Part shown: positions 3,410 to 51,334 of the stretch, in pieces | Numbering within the stretch: the stretch's first letter is position 1 | Layout: every line of letters begins with the position of its first letter | Source of the DNA: Alphaproteobacteria bacterium | Lineage (GTDB): Bacteria; Pseudomonadota; Alphaproteobacteria; CALKHQ01 | Direction: 5' to 3' | NCBI GenBank assembly: GCA_965227515.1 | Contig: CBDDFZ010000001.1 | Coordinates: 2,464,001-2,528,000 of the forward strand | Length of the DNA stretch: 64,000 nt | Notes under the pieces: model-generated | Database searches by the model: none | Seen by the model: only the letters and a program-made list of their open reading frames with translations | Told to the model about the DNA's origin: nothing | Program-made: the position numbers and the translations under genes

Positions 3410-4429
3410 ATGTTAGATTTCGGGTGGACCGAACTGCTGATGATCGCGATCGTCGCGGTTGTGATCATCGGGCCAAAAGACCTGCCCAAGGCCATGGCCT
3501 CGGTCGGCCAGTGGGTGCGCAAGCTGCGTGGCATGGCGAAGGACTTCCAGGGCCAGGTCGATGACGCGGTCAAGGGCACCGAACTGGAAGGCATCACCAA
3601 GACCGCGCGCACCGTCAACAAGTACACGGTCAACCGCAAGCTTAGCAGCCTTGTCGATCCGAAGGGCGCGATCAAGAACGCCCTGACGGAGACGAAGGAG
3701 GTCGCGAATGCCTCGCTGGCACCGCCGACGGAGTTGACCACGGCGAAGGAGGCGAAGGCGGGGTCTGCCACGACTGCGCTGACGTCTTCGAGCACGACGA
3801 CGGCGCTGGCGGATAACGACGTCGCCACCGCGGCGATGGCCGGGACCGCGGGCGCGGCGGCGAAGGCCTCCGGCACCTCGTCCGCGAAGAAGCCGGCGGC
3901 GAAGCGGAAGTCGGCGGCGAAATCCACGACCGCCAAATCGACCACGGCCAAGTCGACCACGGCCAAGTCGACCACGGCTAAGTCGACTTCGGCCAAGTCC
4001 ACCGCCGCCAAGAAGCCTGCCGCCAAGAAGCCCGCCGCCGCGAAACCCGCTGCTGCGAAGACGGGCGGCGCGAAGGCGGCGCCCAAGTCCACAAAGACGG
4101 CGGCCTCGAAGACCTCGGCCAAGAAACCGGCGGCGGCGAAAGCGCCCGCCAGCAAGAGCACGGCCGCCAGCAAGAGCACGGCTGCCAAGCCAGCGGCCAA
4201 AAAGGCGGCCCCCAAAAAGGCGGCCCCCAAGAAGGCCCCGGCCAAGAAGACGGTGGCAAAACCGGCCGCCAATGGCGCCGCCACTAGCTCGACCTCGGGC
4301 GCGACCGCGAGCGACGCCTCCTCCGCGAACGGCGCCAAGCCGGCGACCCGCCGCCGTCGCGCGACCCCGTCCAAGACAGCCACGACCTCGGGCAGCGATG
4401 CACCGAAGGCGGCGGCGTCCAACACCTGA
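3410..4429 (+). CDS. tatB: Twin-arginine translocase TatB with long Ala/Lys/Thr-rich tail
   Basis: MLDFGWTELLMIAIVAVVIIGPKDLP N-terminus; between tatA and tatC. Confidence 0.92.
   Translation: MLDFGWTELLMIAIVAVVIIGPKDLPKAMASVGQWVRKLRGMAKDFQGQVDDAVKGTELEGITKTARTVNKYTVNRKLSSLVDPKGAIKNALTETKEVANASLAPPTELTTAKEAKAGSATTALTSSSTTTALADNDVATAAMAGTAGAAAKASGTSSAKKPAAKRKSAAKSTTAKSTTAKSTTAKSTTAKSTSAKSTAAKKPAAKKPAAAKPAAAKTGGAKAAPKSTKTAASKTSAKKPAAAKAPASKSTAASKSTAAKPAAKKAAPKKAAPKKAPAKKTVAKPAANGAATSSTSGATASDASSANGAKPATRRRRATPSKTATTSGSDAPKAAASNT
3917..4006 (+). repeat. 15-bp tandem coding repeat (AKSTT-like x6) in tatB
   Basis: gccaagtcgaccacg-like units repeated six times. Confidence 0.85.
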
Positions 4430-5676: not shown

Positions 5677-6954
5677 ATGCATGACATCCGATGGATTCGC
5701 GATCACGGCGACGCCTTCGATGCCGCGATGCAGCGGCGCGGCCTCGCCCCGCAGGCCGACGACATCCTGGCCAAGGATGCTGCCACCCGCGAGCTGACGA
5801 CCCGGCTGCAGGAAATGCAGACCCGGCGCAACGAGGCATCGCGATCGATCGGCCAGATCAAGAAGGAGGGCGGCGACGCCAGTGCGGTGATTGCCGAGGT
5901 CGGCGCGCTGAAGGAGGCGATGCCCGGTGTCGAGGCGGGCCTGCGCGAGGCCGAGCAAGGGCGCGAGGACCTGCTGACCGGGCTGCCCAACCTGCCCGAC
6001 GACGAGGTGCCGGACGGCCCCGACGAGACCGCGAACCTGGAGCTGCGGTCGTGGGGCTCGCCGCGTTCGTTCAACTATCAGGCAAGGCCGCACGACGAGC
6101 TCGGCGACCTGATCGGCGGCATGGACTTCCGCCGTGCCGCGCAACTCGCCGGCGCGCGGTTCGTCGTGCTCAGCGGCCCGATCGCGCGGCTGGAGCGCGC
6201 GTTGGGCGACCTGATGCTGGACATGCAGACCCGCGAGCACGGCTACACCGAAGTGTCGCCGCCATTGCTGGTCAACACCGCGACCCTGTTCGGCACCGGC
6301 CAGCTGCCGAAGTTCGCCGAGGACCAGTTCCGCACCACCGATGACCGCTGGCTGATCCCGACCGCCGAGGTGTCGCTGACCAACCTGGTCGCCGACAGCA
6401 TCGTCGACGAGGCCGAACTGCCGATGCGGTTCACGGCGCGCACGCCGTGCTTCCGGTCGGAGGCGGGCGCCGCCGGCAAGGACACCCGCGGCATGATCCG
6501 CCAGCACCAGTTCACCAAGGTCGAGCTGGTGTCGATCACCACGCCGGAGAGCTCGCGCGACGAGCACGAGCGCATGACCGGCTGCGCGGAGGCGGTGCTG
6601 AAGGCGCTGGAGTTGCCCTATCGCGCGGTCAGCCTGTGCACCGGCGACCTCGGCTTCTCGGCCCACCGGACCTACGACCTGGAGGTGTGGCTGCCCAGCC
6701 AGGAGCGCTATCGCGAGATTTCAAGCTGTTCGAACTGCGGTGCCTTCCAGGCACGGCGCATGAAGGCGCGGTATCGCCGTGCCGCCGACCAGTCGGTCGA
6801 TTTCGTCCACACGTTGAACGGGTCCGGCCTGGCCGTCGGCCGGACCTTGATCGCGGTGATGGAGAACTATCAGAACCAGGACGGCTCCATCACCGTGCCA
6901 GAGGCGCTGCGGCCCTATTTGGACGGTCTCGAACGGATAGGACCCGATGCTTAA
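5677..6954 (+). CDS. serS: Serine--tRNA ligase
   Basis: MHDIRWIR start; [41 protein letters not shown]. Confidence 0.97.
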
Positions 6955-8454: not shown

Positions 8455-9651
8455 ATGCTTAAGATGATCATTGCGGCGGCCACGCTGGTGGCCGTTGCCG
8501 GTTGCGGATTCATAGGTGTGCCAGGGCGCACGCCGCCAACAAATACCACTGTCGGTGCCGCGAACCACCGGGTGCAAACCGGGGAGTCCATCTACTCGAT
8601 TGCCACACGCTATGGCACGACGGCGGAGGCGATTGCCGACAACAATGGGCTCGCACCGCCCTATACGCTGACGGCCGGGCAGACGCTGTTCATCCCGTCG
8701 AGCAGCAGCTACGTCGTGCAGCAGGGCGAAACGCTCTACGACATCGCCACCCGCCAGGGCGTCGACGTCGGCGAGTTGGCGCGCATCAATGGCATCGGCC
8801 TGCCCTACGAGGTGGCGCCGGGCCAGACGTTGCGCCTGCCGTACCACGCCACGTCGCTGGCATCCGGCCCGCTGCCCACCGGTCCGGTGCCGTCGGGTGA
8901 CGTGCAGGTCTCGGCGCTGGCCCCCAATGGCACGGTTGCCGGGCAAGGCGTGTATCCGATCCAGCCGCAAGTAGGCACTGCGTATCCGACCGCCGCGGTG
9001 GGGGCACCCCAGCCGCTGTACGATGCGCCGAGCGGGTCTCTCGCTGGCCCGGGCACTGGCGATATCGCGCTGTTGCCGCCGGCGTCGAACGGTCAGGTGC
9101 CGCCTCCGCCGCCGCCGAGCGATCTGGCGGTCACGCCGCCCGCCGACATCGTTCAGCCGGACGTTGCGTCGCCGCCCAGCCTGACCGCGCCGCAACTCGG
9201 CAGCGTCGATCTGCCGCCGTCGCCGGTGCAACCGAGCGAGCCTGCGGCTGTGGCGCCGGCGCCCGCTGCCACCGCCGGTGCCGCCGAGGGTTTCCTGTGG
9301 CCGGTGCGCGGCGACATCCTGTCGAACTTCGCGGCTGGCGGGGCCAATGACGGCATCAACATCGCAGCACCATCGGGCACCCCGGTGCGCGCCGCCGAGG
9401 CAGGCACGGTCGCCTATGTCGGCCAGGATATCGCCAGTTTCGGCAATCTGGTCCTGGTGCGTCACCAGAACGACTGGGTGACGGCCTACGCCCACAACGA
9501 GGCGGTGCTGGTGTCGGAGGGCGAGTCCGTGGCGCGCGGCCAGGTTATCGCGCGGGTCGGGCAGTCAGGCGATGTCTCGCAGCCGCAGCTGCACTTCGAG
9601 TTGCGCCGCGGCACAGACCCGGTCGACCCGATGCCGCACCTGCCGCAGTAG
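8455..9651 (+). CDS. nlpD: LysM / M23 peptidase lipoprotein (NlpD/DipM-like)
   Basis: Lipobox VAGC, two LysM repeats, Pro-rich linker, FLWPVRG...TAYAH...QLHFELR; follows surE-pcm. Confidence 0.85.
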   Translation: MLKMIIAAATLVAVAGCGFIGVPGRTPPTNTTVGAANHRVQTGESIYSIATRYGTTAEAIADNNGLAPPYTLTAGQTLFIPSSSSYVVQQGETLYDIATRQGVDVGELARINGIGLPYEVAPGQTLRLPYHATSLASGPLPTGPVPSGDVQVSALAPNGTVAGQGVYPIQPQVGTAYPTAAVGAPQPLYDAPSGSLAGPGTGDIALLPPASNGQVPPPPPPSDLAVTPPADIVQPDVASPPSLTAPQLGSVDLPPSPVQPSEPAAVAPAPAATAGAAEGFLWPVRGDILSNFAAGGANDGINIAAPSGTPVRAAEAGTVAYVGQDIASFGNLVLVRHQNDWVTAYAHNEAVLVSEGESVARGQVIARVGQSGDVSQPQLHFELRRGTDPVDPMPHLPQ

Positions 9652-40512: not shown

Positions 40513-40800
40513 ATGGCCCTCGACACCGAAACCGTGCGCCGCGTCGCGCGGCTGGCGCGTATCCGCGTCAGCGACGACGAGATCGAAAGCCTCAGCACCG
40601 AGCTGCAGCACATCATGGGCTGGATCGACCAGCTCAATGAGGTCGACACCGCGAACGTCGAGCCGATGACCAGCGCGGTCGAGATGGGGCTGCGCTGGCG
40701 CGAGGACGGGGTGACCGACGGCGGCGCGGTCGACGATGTGCTGGCCAACGCGCCGGCCCGCTCCGACGCCTTCTATACTGTTCCGAAAGTGGTTGAATGA
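40513..40800 (+). CDS. gatC: Asp/Glu-tRNA amidotransferase subunit C
   Basis: [10 protein letters not shown]...VEQL-like, [14 protein letters not shown]. Confidence 0.95.
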
Positions 40801-42293
40801 CGTCCGATATCACATTGACGCATATGACATTGGCGGAGGCGCGCGACAGCCTGCGACAGGGTGCGTTCACCGCTCGTGAGCTGTGCGAGGCGCACCTGCT
40901 GTCGGTGGACCAGCACGCCGGCCTCAACGCCATGATCACGGTCACCTCCGACCAGGCGCTCGACATGGCCGATGCCGCCGACCGCCAGTTGGCCGACCAT
41001 CGCGACGGCGGCGCGGCGCCGGGTGCGCTCGCCGGCATTCCGGTGGCGGTGAAGGATCTGTTCTGCACCGTCGGCGTGCCGACGACGGCGGGCAGCCACA
41101 TCCTGGACGGTTTCACCCCGACCTACGAGAGCACGGTGACGTCGAACCTGTGGGCGGCCGGTGCGGTGATGCTGGGCAAGACCAATCTGGACGAGTTCGC
41201 CATGGGCTCGTCGAACCTGACCAGCTACTACGGCCCGGCGGTCAACCCGTGGCGGGCGGCGGGCGATGACCGGCCCCGCGTCACCGGCGGCTCCTCCGGC
41301 GGCTCGGCGGCGGCGGTGGCGGCGCACATGGCGCTGGGGTCCATCGGCACCGATACCGGCGGGTCGATCCGCCAGCCGGCCTCGTTCTGTGGCGTGGTCG
41401 GCGTGAAGCCGAGCTACGGCCGCTGCTCGCGCTGGGGCGTGGTGGCGTTCGCCTCCTCGCTCGACCATCCGGGCCCGTTCGCCCGCACCGTGCGCGACGG
41501 CGCCATCATGCTGGGCGCGATGGCCGGCTTCGATCCCAAGGACTCGACCAGCGTCGACGTGGCGGTGCCGGACTACGAGGCGTCGCTCGGCGATGGCGTG
41601 CGCGGGCTGAAGATCGGCATCCCGAAGGAGTACCGCACGGACGACATGCCAACTGCCATCGAGGCGTTGTGGCAGGCCGGCGCCGACTGGCTGAAGGCGG
41701 CCGGCGCTGAGATCGTGGAGATCAGCCTGCCGCACACCAAATACGCGCTGCCGGCCTACTACATCATCGCTCCGGCGGAGGCGTCCTCGAACCTCGCCCG
41801 CTATGACGGGGTGCGCTATGGCCTGCGCTCCGAAGGCGCCGACCTGACCGAGATGTACGAGAACACCAGGGGCGACGGTTTCGGCGCGGAGGTCCGGCGG
41901 CGGGTGCTGATCGGCACCTACGTGCTCTCCGCCGGCTACTACGACGCCTACTACAACAAGGCGCGCCGTGTGCGGCAGCAGATCGCCGACGACTTCGCGG
42001 CCGCGTTCCGCGATGTCGACGCCATCCTGACGCCGACGACGCCGAATGCCGCCTTCCCGGTGGACGAGCCGATGACCGATCCGGTCGAGATGTACCTGAA
42101 CGACGTGTTCACGGTGCCGGCGGACCTGGCCGGCATTCCCGGCATCTCGGTGCCGAGTGGTCTGACCGACGACGGCCTGCCGCTGGGCCTGCAGGTGCTG
42201 GCGCCGGCGTTCGAGGAGACGACGGCGTTCCGGGTCGCCCAGGCGATCGAGGATGCGGCCGATTTCGCGGCCCTGCCGGGGGGAGATGCGTGA
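40797..42293 (+). CDS. gatA: Asp/Glu-tRNA amidotransferase subunit A
   Basis: [48 protein letters not shown]. Confidence 0.96.
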
Positions 42294-42314
42294 TGGCGCT
42301 GATTTGAGGAAAAG

Positions 42315-42827
42315 TTAAGAAGCTGAAGCCGGCGGCAAATCCAATGCCTTCAACAACTTAAAAGCTTTCTCAAATCGTCCACCTTCAAGCTTAATGCCTT
42401 TACGCTGCTTTAGCTCCTTTTTCCAGTCCTCAACTTCTTCAACTTCGGATAGCCAATGCATCGTTGCAGCAAGTTCAAGGACCGTCGACGAGTTGTCCTC
42501 CAACTCCCTAACGGCCGACACTAACTTATCTTCCGATAGCAACCTGCTACCTTGAGCCACCGAAGCCTCAGATGGAGATTTATAGACTTCATAAGGCGCT
42601 CCATCGCTATGCCGATAGCGGACCTCCAAATTAAGTTCCCCCAGAGCGACATCAAACTCTACTTGATCGGCCAACTCCCTCGAAAACGGCCCATAATAGT
42701 GGTACGAGAAGGAAAAACCGCTATTCAGGCCAAGCTGATCTAACAGGTAAACGACCTTTTGAAGTCGGATCTTGCCAACCAATTCGCCTCCGTAGTCGCG
42801 AACAAAGTTCGAGATGTCGATGGGCAT
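42315..42827 (-). CDS. YwgA-like protein (Panacea/SocA-like motifs)
   Basis: GELVGKIRLQKVVYLL, YHYYGPFSREL, SSTVLELAATMHW resemble Bacillus YwgA (from memory); directly downstream of HD gene. Confidence 0.7.
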   Translation of the reverse strand: MPIDISNFVRDYGGELVGKIRLQKVVYLLDQLGLNSGFSFSYHYYGPFSRELADQVEFDVALGELNLEVRYRHSDGAPYEVYKSPSEASVAQGSRLLSEDKLVSAVRELEDNSSTVLELAATMHWLSEVEEVEDWKKELKQRKGIKLEGGRFEKAFKLLKALDLPPASAS

Positions 42828-42843
42828 GGCTTCACTCGCTCCT

Positions 42844-44250
42844 TCACATAGCGCTGATTGCGCGTTTCGCTTCTAAAAAGTCTGAATTATCCAAAAAATA
42901 AAATCTCTCAAAATACCTTACCTTCTCAGACCCGGTCAAGGTTGAATCATGAAATGCTGTGATCTCCCTCAGGTTGCCATCTGGCATCATTATCATGAGG
43001 CGTTTATGAGCCTTCTGGTCATCAGCACCAATTTCGCCATACAAAGACAATTTCGCGACATCATTTAAGACTACAGTGCCCATTTTGTCGGAAAATTTCC
43101 TTAGTAGGGCGCTTTTTATACGTCTTTGCTTCTCAAAATCATCTGGGAAGGTGTTTTGGATATCTATGCATTTTGGCTTTTCTCTATGGAGAATTCTTCG
43201 AGCTACATCACGAAGCGGTCCAGTCCCAAACATAGCTATGTCATGGATTGCCCCCCAGACAACTGTATCGTCCAATGCCCTATAATTACTGAGAGTCTCG
43301 CCACCAAGAGAAAAAAATTTAATCACCGGGTTTGTATTAGCTAAGCCTGATATGCAATTACCATCATTGATTTCATCAGAAACTAGGCGGAAAAATGCCG
43401 AAATCATCTGCTCGATGCCACGGGTGGTTTTGTGAAAATATACGTTTGTGTAGAGTCTATATCTGGACAATAAAAAGTCTTCTGCAGCGTCGCGTGCTTT
43501 GTGATACAGGCAGAAGCTATGGCCAATAATCTCACTATCGGTGTTGTCTGCTTCAGCAGGAGAAAAATCAATTGCGGCGACCCGGGCGTTATCCATCAAC
43601 CATTCTAAATCAATTGCACCGGATCCGGTGCCGGTCATATATCTGTCTCGGACAAGATAATCGAGTCGATCAGCGTCAAACGAGCTTGATACAATAGCGT
43701 GGTACATGTCTTCGGGCGTATCGTTCTCGAACAGATGAGCCACCTGATCGACATCGATATTTTCGGCAGTTAAAATAGAATGGATTTCCCCCTCGTTGTC
43801 TCTGATCATATCAGCAGTAAATTTTTCATGCGCGCGAATCGTATCGGATGCCCCACCTCTTTTCTTTGCAATGGATTTGCGCGCTTCTTCGAATGCATGG
43901 CTGAATGGTCCATGCCCTATATCATGCAGCAACGCTCCTAATACGCAAATTTTTGCACGTTCTTCGTCAAAGCTACCTTCGACACGTTCAGAGTCGATCT
44001 CTCGCTTGATAAGTTTGACGAGCCGCCGGGCGTTATGGAAAACACCCACTGAGTGTGCAAATCGCGTATGGCTGGCGGATGGGTAAACGAACTCGGAGAC
44101 GCCCAACTGCTTGATGCGTCGAAGACGCTGGAAGTCCGGAGTTTCGAGAAGCCTCCACGCGACTTTGTCAATGGGATCATCGAGTTCGAACACGATGATG
44201 TCGTGGATCGGATCACGCAATCGTTCTGTTTTTGTATGGCCAATGGTCAT
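42844..44250 (-). CDS. HD-domain dNTP triphosphohydrolase-like protein (SAMHD1/YwfO-like)
   Basis: RDPIH, FQRLRRIKQLG, YPSASHTRFAHSVG, LLHDIGHGPFSHAFE, DADRLDYLVRD, VYFHKTTR. Confidence 0.88.
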   Translation of the reverse strand: MTIGHTKTERLRDPIHDIIVFELDDPIDKVAWRLLETPDFQRLRRIKQLGVSEFVYPSASHTRFAHSVGVFHNARRLVKLIKREIDSERVEGSFDEERAKICVLGALLHDIGHGPFSHAFEEARKSIAKKRGGASDTIRAHEKFTADMIRDNEGEIHSILTAENIDVDQVAHLFENDTPEDMYHAIVSSSFDADRLDYLVRDRYMTGTGSGAIDLEWLMDNARVAAIDFSPAEADNTDSEIIGHSFCLYHKARDAAEDFLLSRYRLYTNVYFHKTTRGIEQMISAFFRLVSDEINDGNCISGLANTNPVIKFFSLGGETLSNYRALDDTVVWGAIHDIAMFGTGPLRDVARRILHREKPKCIDIQNTFPDDFEKQRRIKSALLRKFSDKMGTVVLNDVAKLSLYGEIGADDQKAHKRLMIMMPDGNLREITAFHDSTLTGSEKVRYFERFYFLDNSDFLEAKRAISAM

Positions 44251-44366
44251 GTGAACGTGCATAGAACAGATGATTGAGGATGTCAACCGAATCGCCAGCT
44301 AGATGGGCAACAGAGAATGCGCTACTTAGACGAAATGGTACTGTATGGCAAAGTATGGGACGAACC

Positions 44367-45824
44367 ATGGCGCTGATCCGAGGCACCACCGGCGATTGGG
44401 AACTGGTGATCGGGCTGGAAGTCCACGCCCAGGTCATGTCCGACGCCAAGCTGTTCTCAGGCGCGGCCACCGCGTTCGGCGCCGAGCCCAACCACCAGGT
44501 CAGCCTGGTCGACGCCGCCATGCCCGGCATGCTGCCGGTGATCAATGGCGCCTGCGTGCGCCAGGCGGTGCGCACCGGCCTCGGCCTGGGCGCCGAGATC
44601 AACCTGCGCTCCATCTTCGACCGCAAGAACTACTTCTACCCGGACCTGCCGCAGGGCTATCAGATCAGCCAGTACAAGGACCCGGTGGTCGGCCGCGGCG
44701 CGGTGGAGATCGACCTGGAGGATGGGTCGACCAAGACCATTCATATCGAGCGCCTGCACCTGGAGCAGGATGCCGGCAAATCGGTGCACGACCGCGACCC
44801 GCGCGTCACCTGCATCGACCTCAACCGCTCCGGCGTCGCGCTGATGGAGATCGTGTCGGAGCCGGACATGCGCTCGGCCGACGAGGCGGCGGCCTACGTC
44901 ACCAAGCTGCGCGCGATCATGCGCTATCTCGGCACCTGCGACGGCAACATGGAGGAGGGGTCGCTGCGCGCCGACGTCAACGTTTCGGTGCGGCGCGCCG
45001 GGGCCAACGAATACGGCACCCGTTGCGAGATCAAGAACGTCAACTCGATCCGTTTCATGCGCCAGGCCATCGCGTTCGAGGCGCACCGCCAGATCGAGAT
45101 CCTGGAGGATGGCGGCAGCATCGACCAGGAGACCCGGCTGTTCGACGCCAAGCGCGGCGAGACGCGGTCCATGCGCTCCAAGGAGGAGGCGCACGACTAT
45201 CGCTATTTCCCCGATCCCGACCTGTTGCCGCTGGAGCTCGACGCCGACTGGGTCGAGGAACTGCGCGCCGGCCTGCCCGAACTGCCCGACGCCAAGAAGC
45301 AGCGCTTCATGGCCGACTTCGGTCTCGGAGCCGAAGATGCCGCCGTGCTGGTGGCCGAGCGCGAGGCGGCCGAGTACTACGAGCGTGTCGTGGCCGTCGG
45401 CGGTGAGCCGAAGCTGGCGGCGAACTGGGTGGTCACCGAGCTGTTCGGCGCGCTGAACCGGGCCGGGCAGGGCATCGCGGACTCGCCCGTCTCGGCGGAG
45501 GATTTGGGCGGGCTGATCAAGCTGATCGCCGACGACACCATCTCCGGGCGCATCGCCAAGGACGTGTTCGCGGAGATGATGCAGACCGGCAAGCCCGCGA
45601 ACCAGATCGTCGAGGAAAAGGGCCTGCGCCAGATCACCGACACCGGCGCGATCGAGACCGCCATCGACGAGCTGATCGCCGCCAACCCGGACCAGGTGGC
45701 CGGCTACCGCGGCGGCAACCAGAAGCTGATCGGCTGGTTCGTCGGCCAGGTGATGAAGGCGACCCAGGGCAAGGCCAACCCGAAACTGGTCAACCAGGTG
45801 CTGCGGGCCAAGCTCGATGGCTGA
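44367..45824 (+). CDS. gatB: Asp/Glu-tRNA amidotransferase subunit B
   Basis: [58 protein letters not shown]. Confidence 0.97.
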
Positions 45825-47898: not shown

Positions 47899-51273
<3,375 letters not shown>

Positions 51274-51334
51274 CGGGCCTCGCAGGCCATGACAAAACTC
51301 CATTGTCGTCCTTGACTGGCTCCTACAACTTCAT

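Follow-up and report, generated by a model that had tools for sequence, protein, structure and literature searches.

A 64,000-nucleotide (nt) stretch from an Alphaproteobacteria bacterium (assembly GCA_965227515.1, contig CBDDFZ010000001.1, positions 2,464,001 to 2,528,000), here called the window, carries a two-gene cassette between gatA and gatB. The first gene encodes an HD-domain enzyme of the EF1143/SAMHD1 type and the second a small YwgA-like protein. The two genes are a conserved, co-inherited module, and the cassette is horizontally acquired, in the window as well as elsewhere. Our preferred reading, to which we assign a probability of about 0.5, is that the small partner restrains a deoxynucleoside triphosphate (dNTP)-hydrolyzing effector as a brake, with a possible role in conflicts with phages. 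Nucleotide depletion by SAMHD1-like enzymes is an antiviral strategy common to animals and bacteria, and how cells keep nucleotide-depleting enzymes harmless until they are needed is an open question. The central features are as follows.

42844..44250, minus strand: HD-domain gene of the EF1143/SAMHD1 dNTP triphosphohydrolase type, 468 amino acids (aa), ATG at 44250
42828..42843, minus strand: intergenic spacer of 16 nt, with AGGAG 11 nt before the ATG of the small gene
42315..42827, minus strand: YwgA-like small-protein gene, 170 aa, its product sharing the fold of DarG's C-terminal, toxin-binding domain
42310..44366, no strand assigned: inserted low-GC island of about 2.06 kb holding two genes only

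The layout given in the initial annotation, namely two co-oriented, AT-richer genes 16 bp apart with a GGAG ribosome-binding site and antisense in gatCAB, is all present in the sequence. The pair is antisense inside the operon since gatC, gatA, and gatB all lie on the plus strand and the pair on the minus strand. The GC content of the pair is 46.4% against 68.1% for the remainder of the window, and it runs at 0.42-0.50 over 42250-44250 and at 0.62-0.73 to either side. In full, the HD open reading frame (ORF) covers 42844-44286 on the minus strand, with other possible starts at 44262 (ATG) and 44286; homologues begin to align near residue 7 of the 468-aa form. A scan for promoters and terminators over 42150-44550 was null, finding 4 and 3 sites where shuffled sequence would give 2.4 and 2.1.

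The HD protein is an enzyme of the EF1143/SAMHD1 branch whose active and activator sites are intact, and whose activity is predicted from its sequence. It is matched by Pfam HD (50.4 bits, cut-off 22) and HD_assoc_2 (23.3 bits, cut-off 23.1), and its best match among solved structures is E. faecalis EF1143 (2o6i/3irh/4lrl; phmmer E 1.3e-45, query residues 11-452 against chain residues 40-444). SAMHD1 matches the N-terminal part only, with E about 1e-19 to 2e-21. According to the sections of PMC3190883 that deal with the catalytic center, EF1143 has the metal ligands H66, H110, D111, and D183, the dyad H129-E122, and H114; the same sections give R63, Y187, and Y368 as substrate contacts and Q41, R44, F64, R326, and K330 as allosteric residues. 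Aligned to EF1143, the window enzyme has the metal ligands H66, H109, D110, and D194, a catalytic dyad equivalent H141-E121 with H113 beside it, the substrate-contact equivalents R63, Y198, and Y404, and the allosteric dGTP-site equivalents Q41, R44, F64, R356, and K360. All of the mapped residues are invariant in 36 homologues, except F64, which is nearly invariant, and K360, which is kept in the majority only. The equivalent of EF1143 K14 is uncertain; R10 is invariant in the homologue alignment. We thus agree with the initial annotation in calling the enzyme SAMHD1-like, and predict that it is probably a tetrameric, allosterically regulated dNTP triphosphohydrolase.

The sequence motifs on which that annotation had relied were recovered in both proteins: H...HD...D (H66, H109-D110, and D194), RxxxxxQLG (R42...Q48-L49-G50), and DRxDYxxRD (D194-R-L-D-Y198-L-V-R-D202) in the enzyme, and LQKxxY (L22-Q-K-V-V-Y27) and YGPFS (Y45-G-P-F-S49) in the partner. 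These positions are invariant or nearly so across the 36 HD and 28 small-protein homologues and are therefore not due to chance. In the small-protein family the motifs read RLQKxxYLLD, YGP(F/Y)S, and TVLELAAT.

The small protein is Panacea-like in fold and is not a member of Pfam family PF13274. An AlphaFold 2 model built on 28 sequences (pLDDT 90.3) has an N-terminal winged-helix-like half and a helical half. The only Foldseek matches at E <= 0.001 were chains B and D of 7yk3, a DarT-DarG structure in which they represent the C-terminal domain of DarG (E 2.4e-4, TM-score 0.59/0.54), and a VIA-align comparison with 48,161 chains placed 7yk3_D first (Z 11.4, root-mean-square deviation 4.5, 157 residues aligned; runner-up Z 5.3). 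At the profile level, the PADLOC DarG model was matched over positions 170-300 of 329 (38 bits), and the NCBIfam model antitoxin_DarG (NF048014) over profile positions 185-310 of 338 with 26.5 bits where 250 are required. Lacking a macrodomain, the small protein falls outside the full DarG family, with which it has the fold of the C-terminal domain in common. A search of PDB sequences gave only a chance-level match (E 0.24). In the portion of a 2026 paper that concerns this domain, DUF4065 proteins are described as its homologues (PMC13621843), and a GPV motif in the strand beside a central helix is presented as the Panacea signature in part of PMC8832971. G46-P47 of the window protein is invariant and lies in the model in strand 46-48 beside helix 19-31; the third residue is F or Y, not V. 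The name YwgA/Panacea-like chosen in the initial annotation accordingly stands as to the fold, the GP motif, and the YwgA label, and fails as to the Pfam SocA_Panacea model.

The VIA-align rows that follow 7yk3_D are PadR/MarR/Fur-type winged-helix regulators, which align to residues 1-100 only (Z 4.3-5.3). These rows would fit a small protein that serves mainly as a winged-helix DNA-binding operon regulator or nucleic-acid sensor, an explanation that we group with the idea of the pair as a stranded accessory of a larger restriction-modification (R-M)-like system and rate as very improbable. The full-length match to the DarG C-terminal domain scores far above the winged-helix rows, the complex model described below passes its controls, and an insertion in the HD protein co-varies with the presence of the partner.

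In total, 262 homologues of the small protein were found; among the best 120 listed, identity is at most 56%, many bear the JGI name 'uncharacterized protein YwgA', and one UniRef name reads 'DUF4065 domain-containing'. Ten cluster representatives gave one name, a Helicobacteraceae metagenome-assembled genome (MAG) entry labelled YwgA. One Atlas cluster in which 13% of members have PF13274 scores 0.91, which we treat as a lead only. The family profile retrieved 3,026 representatives of 50%-identity clusters at E <= 1e-3, 729 at 1e-10, and 84 at 1e-30, and the top 150 profile matches are all short stand-alone proteins. The ywfO-ywgA genes of B. subtilis may be a parallel pair, as the JGI label suggests; PF19276 was matched in the B. 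subtilis control genome, with no locus given.

Pairing of the two genes was assessed in species genomes by an alignment-based scan (243 relatives, 80 loci kept, nearly all from Alphaproteobacteria), to which locus L002 was added for a total of 81. A related-loci search with the small protein as single query had found no relative, and the alignment query succeeded. In 75 of the 81 loci, the gene immediately upstream, in the same orientation, encodes an HD homologue. The best high-scoring segment pair covers at least 400 of the 468 residues in 58 of these 75; eight others are cut by contig ends and nine are shorter. Four of the six loci without an HD match have at most 419 bp of upstream sequence. 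Gaps between the matches are mostly 13-100 nt across the paired loci, compared with 16 nt in the window. In a class sample of 401 genomes from 307 genera, drawn evenly, the small protein occurs in 11 genomes and 11 genera and an HD homologue in 30 genomes, and in all 11 genomes positive for the small protein the HD gene is adjacent. Across 54 pairs, distances among the enzymes track those among the partners (r 0.84, with 0 of 999 permutations as high). The two-component unit that the initial annotation had envisaged is thus a recurrent one.

HD homologues without the partner form a group of their own. For seven strong HD homologues, termed solo here, no match to the small protein was obtained in the nearest 2-3 kb, even with E relaxed to 10; their identity to the window enzyme is 32-39%, and that of the paired HDs 41-64%. 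In a quick maximum-likelihood tree, the 54 paired HDs are on one side of a branch (SH-aLRT 96) and the seven solo HDs, whose rows are long-branched, on the opposite side. The two sets also differ in the segment that matches residues 222-246 of the window HD, whose length ranges over 21-32 residues (median 24) among the 54 paired HDs, compared with 9-13 among the solo HDs. Residues 227-241 or so thus represent an insertion of about 11-15 residues, which EF1143 lacks as well.

A complex prediction, one of the checks proposed in the initial annotation, came out in its favor, with an ipSAE of 0.72 (median of three runs) against 0.39 for the best control. Of 80 solved complexes 58 attain this mark, as do 2 of 110 mismatched pairs; these counts are rough, as own alignments were used. 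The three runs have at least 83% of their contacts in common, with a partner pLDDT of at least 84. On the HD side, the predicted interface consists of residues 136-137, 172-180, 227-243, 372-376, and 412-444, with the insertion at its core, and the contacts of lowest error join HD 228-233 and 429 to partner residues 17-21, 71-81, and 114-115. The model and its controls support the prediction that the two proteins bind each other. We know of no comparable complex, though that of DarT and DarG has been solved.

In EF1143, as set out in a section of PMC3190883, the beta7-beta8 loop covers the active site, and elements of beta6 and beta7 build the allosteric site of the neighboring subunit. By sequence alignment, HD residues 402-417 correspond to the beta7-beta8 loop. 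Because the predicted interface maps to these beta elements, the partner would dock on the regulatory and oligomerization face of the enzyme.

Under our preferred reading, the HD gene product would be an allosterically regulated, probably tetrameric dNTP triphosphohydrolase of the EF1143/SAMHD1 type, and the partner, with its DarG-C-terminal/Panacea-like fold, would bind it through the insertion at about 227-241 and the C-terminal beta elements at about 372-376 and 412-444. The corresponding elements in EF1143 are those that cover the active site and contribute to the allosteric site of the neighboring subunit. Most likely, the partner is an antitoxin-like brake on the dNTPase, inhibition being presumed over activation. 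If the partner were lost or displaced, putatively by phage infection or by loss of the cassette, the enzyme would be freed, would deplete dNTPs, and would stop DNA replication. A defence role of the pair may follow from this scheme.

Horizontal movement of the pair, which had been presumed from the start, is borne out by a flanking duplication, an empty site in relatives, low GC, and a tree that is incongruent with taxonomy. The features at the insertion site are as follows.

40513-40800, plus strand: gatC (Pfam GatC)
40797..42293, plus strand: gatA (Pfam Amidase, 481 bits), the upstream half of the split gatA-gatB junction
42293..42309, no strand assigned: left direct-repeat copy, the old gatA-stop/gatB-start junction, now only a five-codon remnant with stop
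44367..44383, no strand assigned: right direct-repeat copy, the first 17 nt of intact gatB with its true start
44367..45824, plus strand: gatB (GatB_N 399 bits, GatB_Yqey 182 bits), parted from gatA by the antisense island

The two repeat copies are 17 nt long, identical at 15 of 17 positions (88%) with 11 nt exact, and spaced by 2074 nt. In the left copy the gatA stop overlaps an ATG, which is followed by four codons and a stop. Since the left copy is a remnant of the gatA stop and gatB start and the right copy is the real gatB start, the old gatA/gatB junction has been duplicated. By ORF coordinates, gatA ends where gatB begins in relative G001, and the gatA/gatB junctions of relatives G001-G004 align without an insert. 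The window GatB is 74-79% identical to that of the relatives. Its upstream region, which in relatives overlaps the gatA stop, has been replaced by the insertion. No integrase or transposase ORF was found within the island.

At least three further loci have the pair between direct repeats of host DNA:

L012, 6300-6499 / 8584-8783: at least 200 nt, 93% identity, spacing 2284 nt, 5' part of radA
L067, 1371-1450 / 3442-3521: 80 nt, 96% identity, spacing 2071 nt, 3' end of a glutathione S-transferase gene
L024, 3523-3537 / 5787-5801: 15 nt, 100% identity, spacing 2264 nt

In L012, a 103-aa radA-like fragment lies upstream of the pair and a 338-aa one downstream. Nine loci reached the maximum k of 30 in the repeat scan, of which only L012 and L067 were verified; the other seven, in which the HD gene starts at a contig edge, were discarded as artefacts. 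The repeats vary widely in length (17, at least 200, 80, and 15 nt), and their spacing is constant at about 2.07-2.28 kb. Because the duplication lengths vary, integration by a single crossover is favored over the action of a transposase, which suggests that a circular intermediate integrates on short homology rather than by transposition.

The wider distribution has the same character. Among 41 relatives' genomes, the small protein was found in two, one of which is the window's own, and in none of three from the same family. The GC content of the pair is below that of its flanks in 57 of 60 loci, by nine points on average and by at least eight points in 31 loci. The HD tree does not follow taxonomy, as two Actinomycetota MAGs nest among Alphaproteobacteria. 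Gene neighborhoods are diverse, with 289 neighbor clusters for 70 loci and the commonest present in 11 loci.

Several observations weigh against a brake-and-effector cassette with a role in defence. The anti-phage dGTPase model NF041026 scores the HD protein at 26.4 bits against a cut-off of 400 and TIGR01353 at 40.2 against 152, and the PADLOC dGTPase model reaches 33 bits, confined to residues 33-145. For the small protein, Pfam gives no match at E <= 10, and PF13274 (SocA_Panacea) is matched by a single one of 28 family members (E 0.056). A complex control in which the partner was kept and the HD protein replaced scored 0.39, and the predicted complex would be compatible equally with inhibition or activation. 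Two true orphan small genes occur, in L068 (7920-8500) and L082 (7953-8453), with no HD gene within 8 kb upstream. In a tblastn search with the small protein, no match was found in 72,556 plasmid or 50,697 phage records. The association with defence genes whose examination the initial annotation had recommended was seen in part: clear defence genes lie within three genes of the pair in 12 of 70 loci (16 of 70 with a lenient list), leaving 54-58 loci without, and no enrichment is claimed from these counts, which have no matched control or base rate. Most loci lie among housekeeping genes, and by Pfam many adjoin core genes such as gatAB, radA, argS, uvrA, and ABC-F. PADLOC hits to mad3/AriA among the neighbors were rejected, being the housekeeping ATPases UvrA and ABC-F after a Pfam check. 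In passages of PMC3814617 and PMC4993169, YwfO is a persistent Bacillota gene of guessed function which co-evolves with PolC and is kept in JCVI-Syn3.0, a persistence that fits a housekeeping role for the wider family.

Further PADLOC hits among neighbors were dropped as non-specific after the Pfam check: PycC (an adenylate-cyclase domain), an oxidoreductase, Csa3, and CSD. Of the orphan small genes, that of L068 adjoins an IS5-type transposase gene and that of L082 follows a PAS_5-domain gene.

The persistence of YwfO-type enzymes in Bacillota, down to a minimal genome, together with the scarcity of defence neighbors and the absence of the pair from the plasmid and phage records searched, would be expected if the cassette were a housekeeping or fitness module. 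The enzyme would then regulate or sanitize the dNTP pool, with the small protein as a regulatory or activating subunit, for example in coupling to replication or repair, and neither would have a part in conflict. Part of PMC3190883 presents EF1143 as a dNTP-pool regulator, and an HD-domain 'TA group' found in 619 of 621 Staphylococcus genomes has a core-like distribution, with no partner named in the part concerned of PMC10244574. The occurrence of repair genes among the neighbors points the same way. uvrA is the direct neighbor of the pair in five loci (L018, L031, L042, L055, and L063) and radA in two (L008 and L012), in unrelated hosts; this recurrence could reflect chance, a common insertion preference, or a link between dNTP supply and repair. 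Against such a module stand the rare and patchy occurrence of the pair in Alphaproteobacteria and its absence from the same-family genomes, the low GC and incongruent tree, and an insertion that here plainly splits an essential operon. We regard a housekeeping role as unlikely.

The layout of the pair also recalls toxin-antitoxin (TA) systems. A type II TA pair which ensures its own retention, through post-segregational arrest by dNTP depletion and with no phage defence, would have the enzyme gene first and the DarG-like gene second, and would be paired across many species at short distances. The spacing observed agrees with the gene distances used for type II TA pairs in the PanAT study, and the distance and conservation criteria appear in the portion of PMC8832971 on which we draw. 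The mobile unit here is the two genes alone, at a site beside essential genes where deletion is risky. Such a selfish addiction cassette is nonetheless quite unlikely in our view, as the toxicity of the HD gene is a prediction, the pair is missing from the plasmid records searched, a usual place for addiction modules, and part of the family lies inside operons related to DISARM and Druantia, which argues for defence rather than pure addiction.

These operons comprise eight loci in which the pair is within one co-oriented operon with an SNF2 helicase and an Eco57I/DrmMI-like methyltransferase. In the three loci that were extended upstream, the gene order is a DruE/DrmA-like helicase with MZB (DUF1998; about 1,730 aa), the SNF2 helicase (about 920 aa; 620 bits to the DpdE model), the methyltransferase (about 1,300 aa), an optional M78 peptidase, the HD gene, the small gene, and, in most, an HNH gene. 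These DISARM/Druantia-like operons with the pair built in are located as follows.

L096, 5789-19190
L097, 1057-14247, minus strand
L098, 4803-19316

A large serine recombinase gene lies just upstream of the operon in L096 (3355-5223). An HNH_2 endonuclease gene (encoding about 260-300 aa) directly follows the small gene on the same strand in 11 loci (L019, L023, L030, L032, L043, L045, L047, L049, L050, L062, and L075), which makes a variant of three genes, and the window has none. Other defence neighbors are a type III R-M system in L040, a type I R-M system with a TIR protein in L054, and ZorD in L075.

The helicase-methyltransferase operons and the HNH genes that follow the pair are what one would expect of the stranded R-M-like accessory referred to above. 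On the other hand, the pairs embedded in operons are dispersed over a single sub-clade of the HD tree, and the majority of pairs occur by themselves.

From EF1143 and SAMHD1, with full-length homology to the former and the metal, dyad, substrate, and allosteric residues kept, the window enzyme differs in its insertion at 227-241, in its dedicated small partner, and in being an accessory, horizontally moving gene. Like the window pair, PanA/PanT and SocAB have a small partner whose central helix adjoins a strand with a GP motif, and a tight two-gene layout across species, whereas the small protein of the window fails PF13274 and is almost always paired with one enzyme family, not many. Direct complex formation has been shown for PanAT pairs in the part of PMC8832971 that treats it, and is only predicted for the window pair. 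DarTG (7yk3) provides the sole full-length structural match of the small protein and likewise has the enzyme gene first and the DarG-like gene second, but the window pair is without a macrodomain, and its enzyme is an HD hydrolase, not an ADP-ribosyltransferase.

Anti-phage dGTPases and Clover are alike in having a nucleotide-depleting HD enzyme whose harmful activity needs restraint. As described in part of PMC12265719, Clover consists of the dNTPase CloA and the nucleotidyltransferase CloB, and the partner gene restrains the dNTPase. The brake proposed here would be a binding protein and not an inhibitory nucleotide from a nucleotidyltransferase. No nucleotidyltransferase match was obtained for the window partner in Pfam, NCBIfam, or PADLOC, and the island has two genes only, which places it outside Clover. 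DISARM and Druantia-like systems are approached by the eight related loci with helicase and methyltransferase; these genes are not in the window, and the related loci showed no DrmC/PLD and instead have the pair, often together with an HNH gene.

PADLOC v2.0.0 did not recognize the pair as a system, and the literature search gave no description of an HD dNTPase with a YwgA/Panacea-like partner, as the initial annotation had supposed in stating that it knew of no such defence system. The main text of the Panacea paper (PMC8832971) has no mention of an HD domain, SAMHD1, dNTP, or a phosphohydrolase, and its supplementary datasets may hold the pair; the main text of a 2026 dGTPase survey mentions no such partner. 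The pair would extend a known theme, which can equally be described as nucleotide depletion by an enzyme with its own regulatory gene or as a Panacea-like TA-type pair whose enzyme is of a new class.

The published bacterial answer to the control of nucleotide-depleting enzymes that we found, that of Clover, is an inhibitory nucleotide. If our preferred reading is correct, a protein brake with a toxin-binding antitoxin fold would be a different solution, the Panacea/DarG-C fold would extend to a new enzyme class, and the long-uncharacterized YwfO/YwgA gene pair would have a function. The clade-specific insertion at the predicted interface makes the brake idea directly testable. More tentatively, and with considerable doubt, the YwgA-like proteins may be a large unrecognized branch of Panacea/DarG-C proteins which act as brakes or infection-sensing switches for SAMHD1-like dNTPases, providing a protein-gated form of nucleotide-depletion immunity carried by a 2-kb recombinase-free cassette that duplicates host sequence as it inserts at essential-gene ends.

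Some HD copies beside a small gene appear broken. One is split into two overlapping pieces (G056:C2:95451-96843), one is a C-terminal piece with an internal TAG (G328:C61:63995-64540), and one has an internal TGA (G402:C21:2630-3985); such copies may belong to cassettes in decay. In the window, the translation of a 1,134-aa ORF (47899-51303, minus strand) about 2 kb downstream of gatB looks, by eye, like an error-prone DnaE2-type DNA polymerase III alpha subunit.

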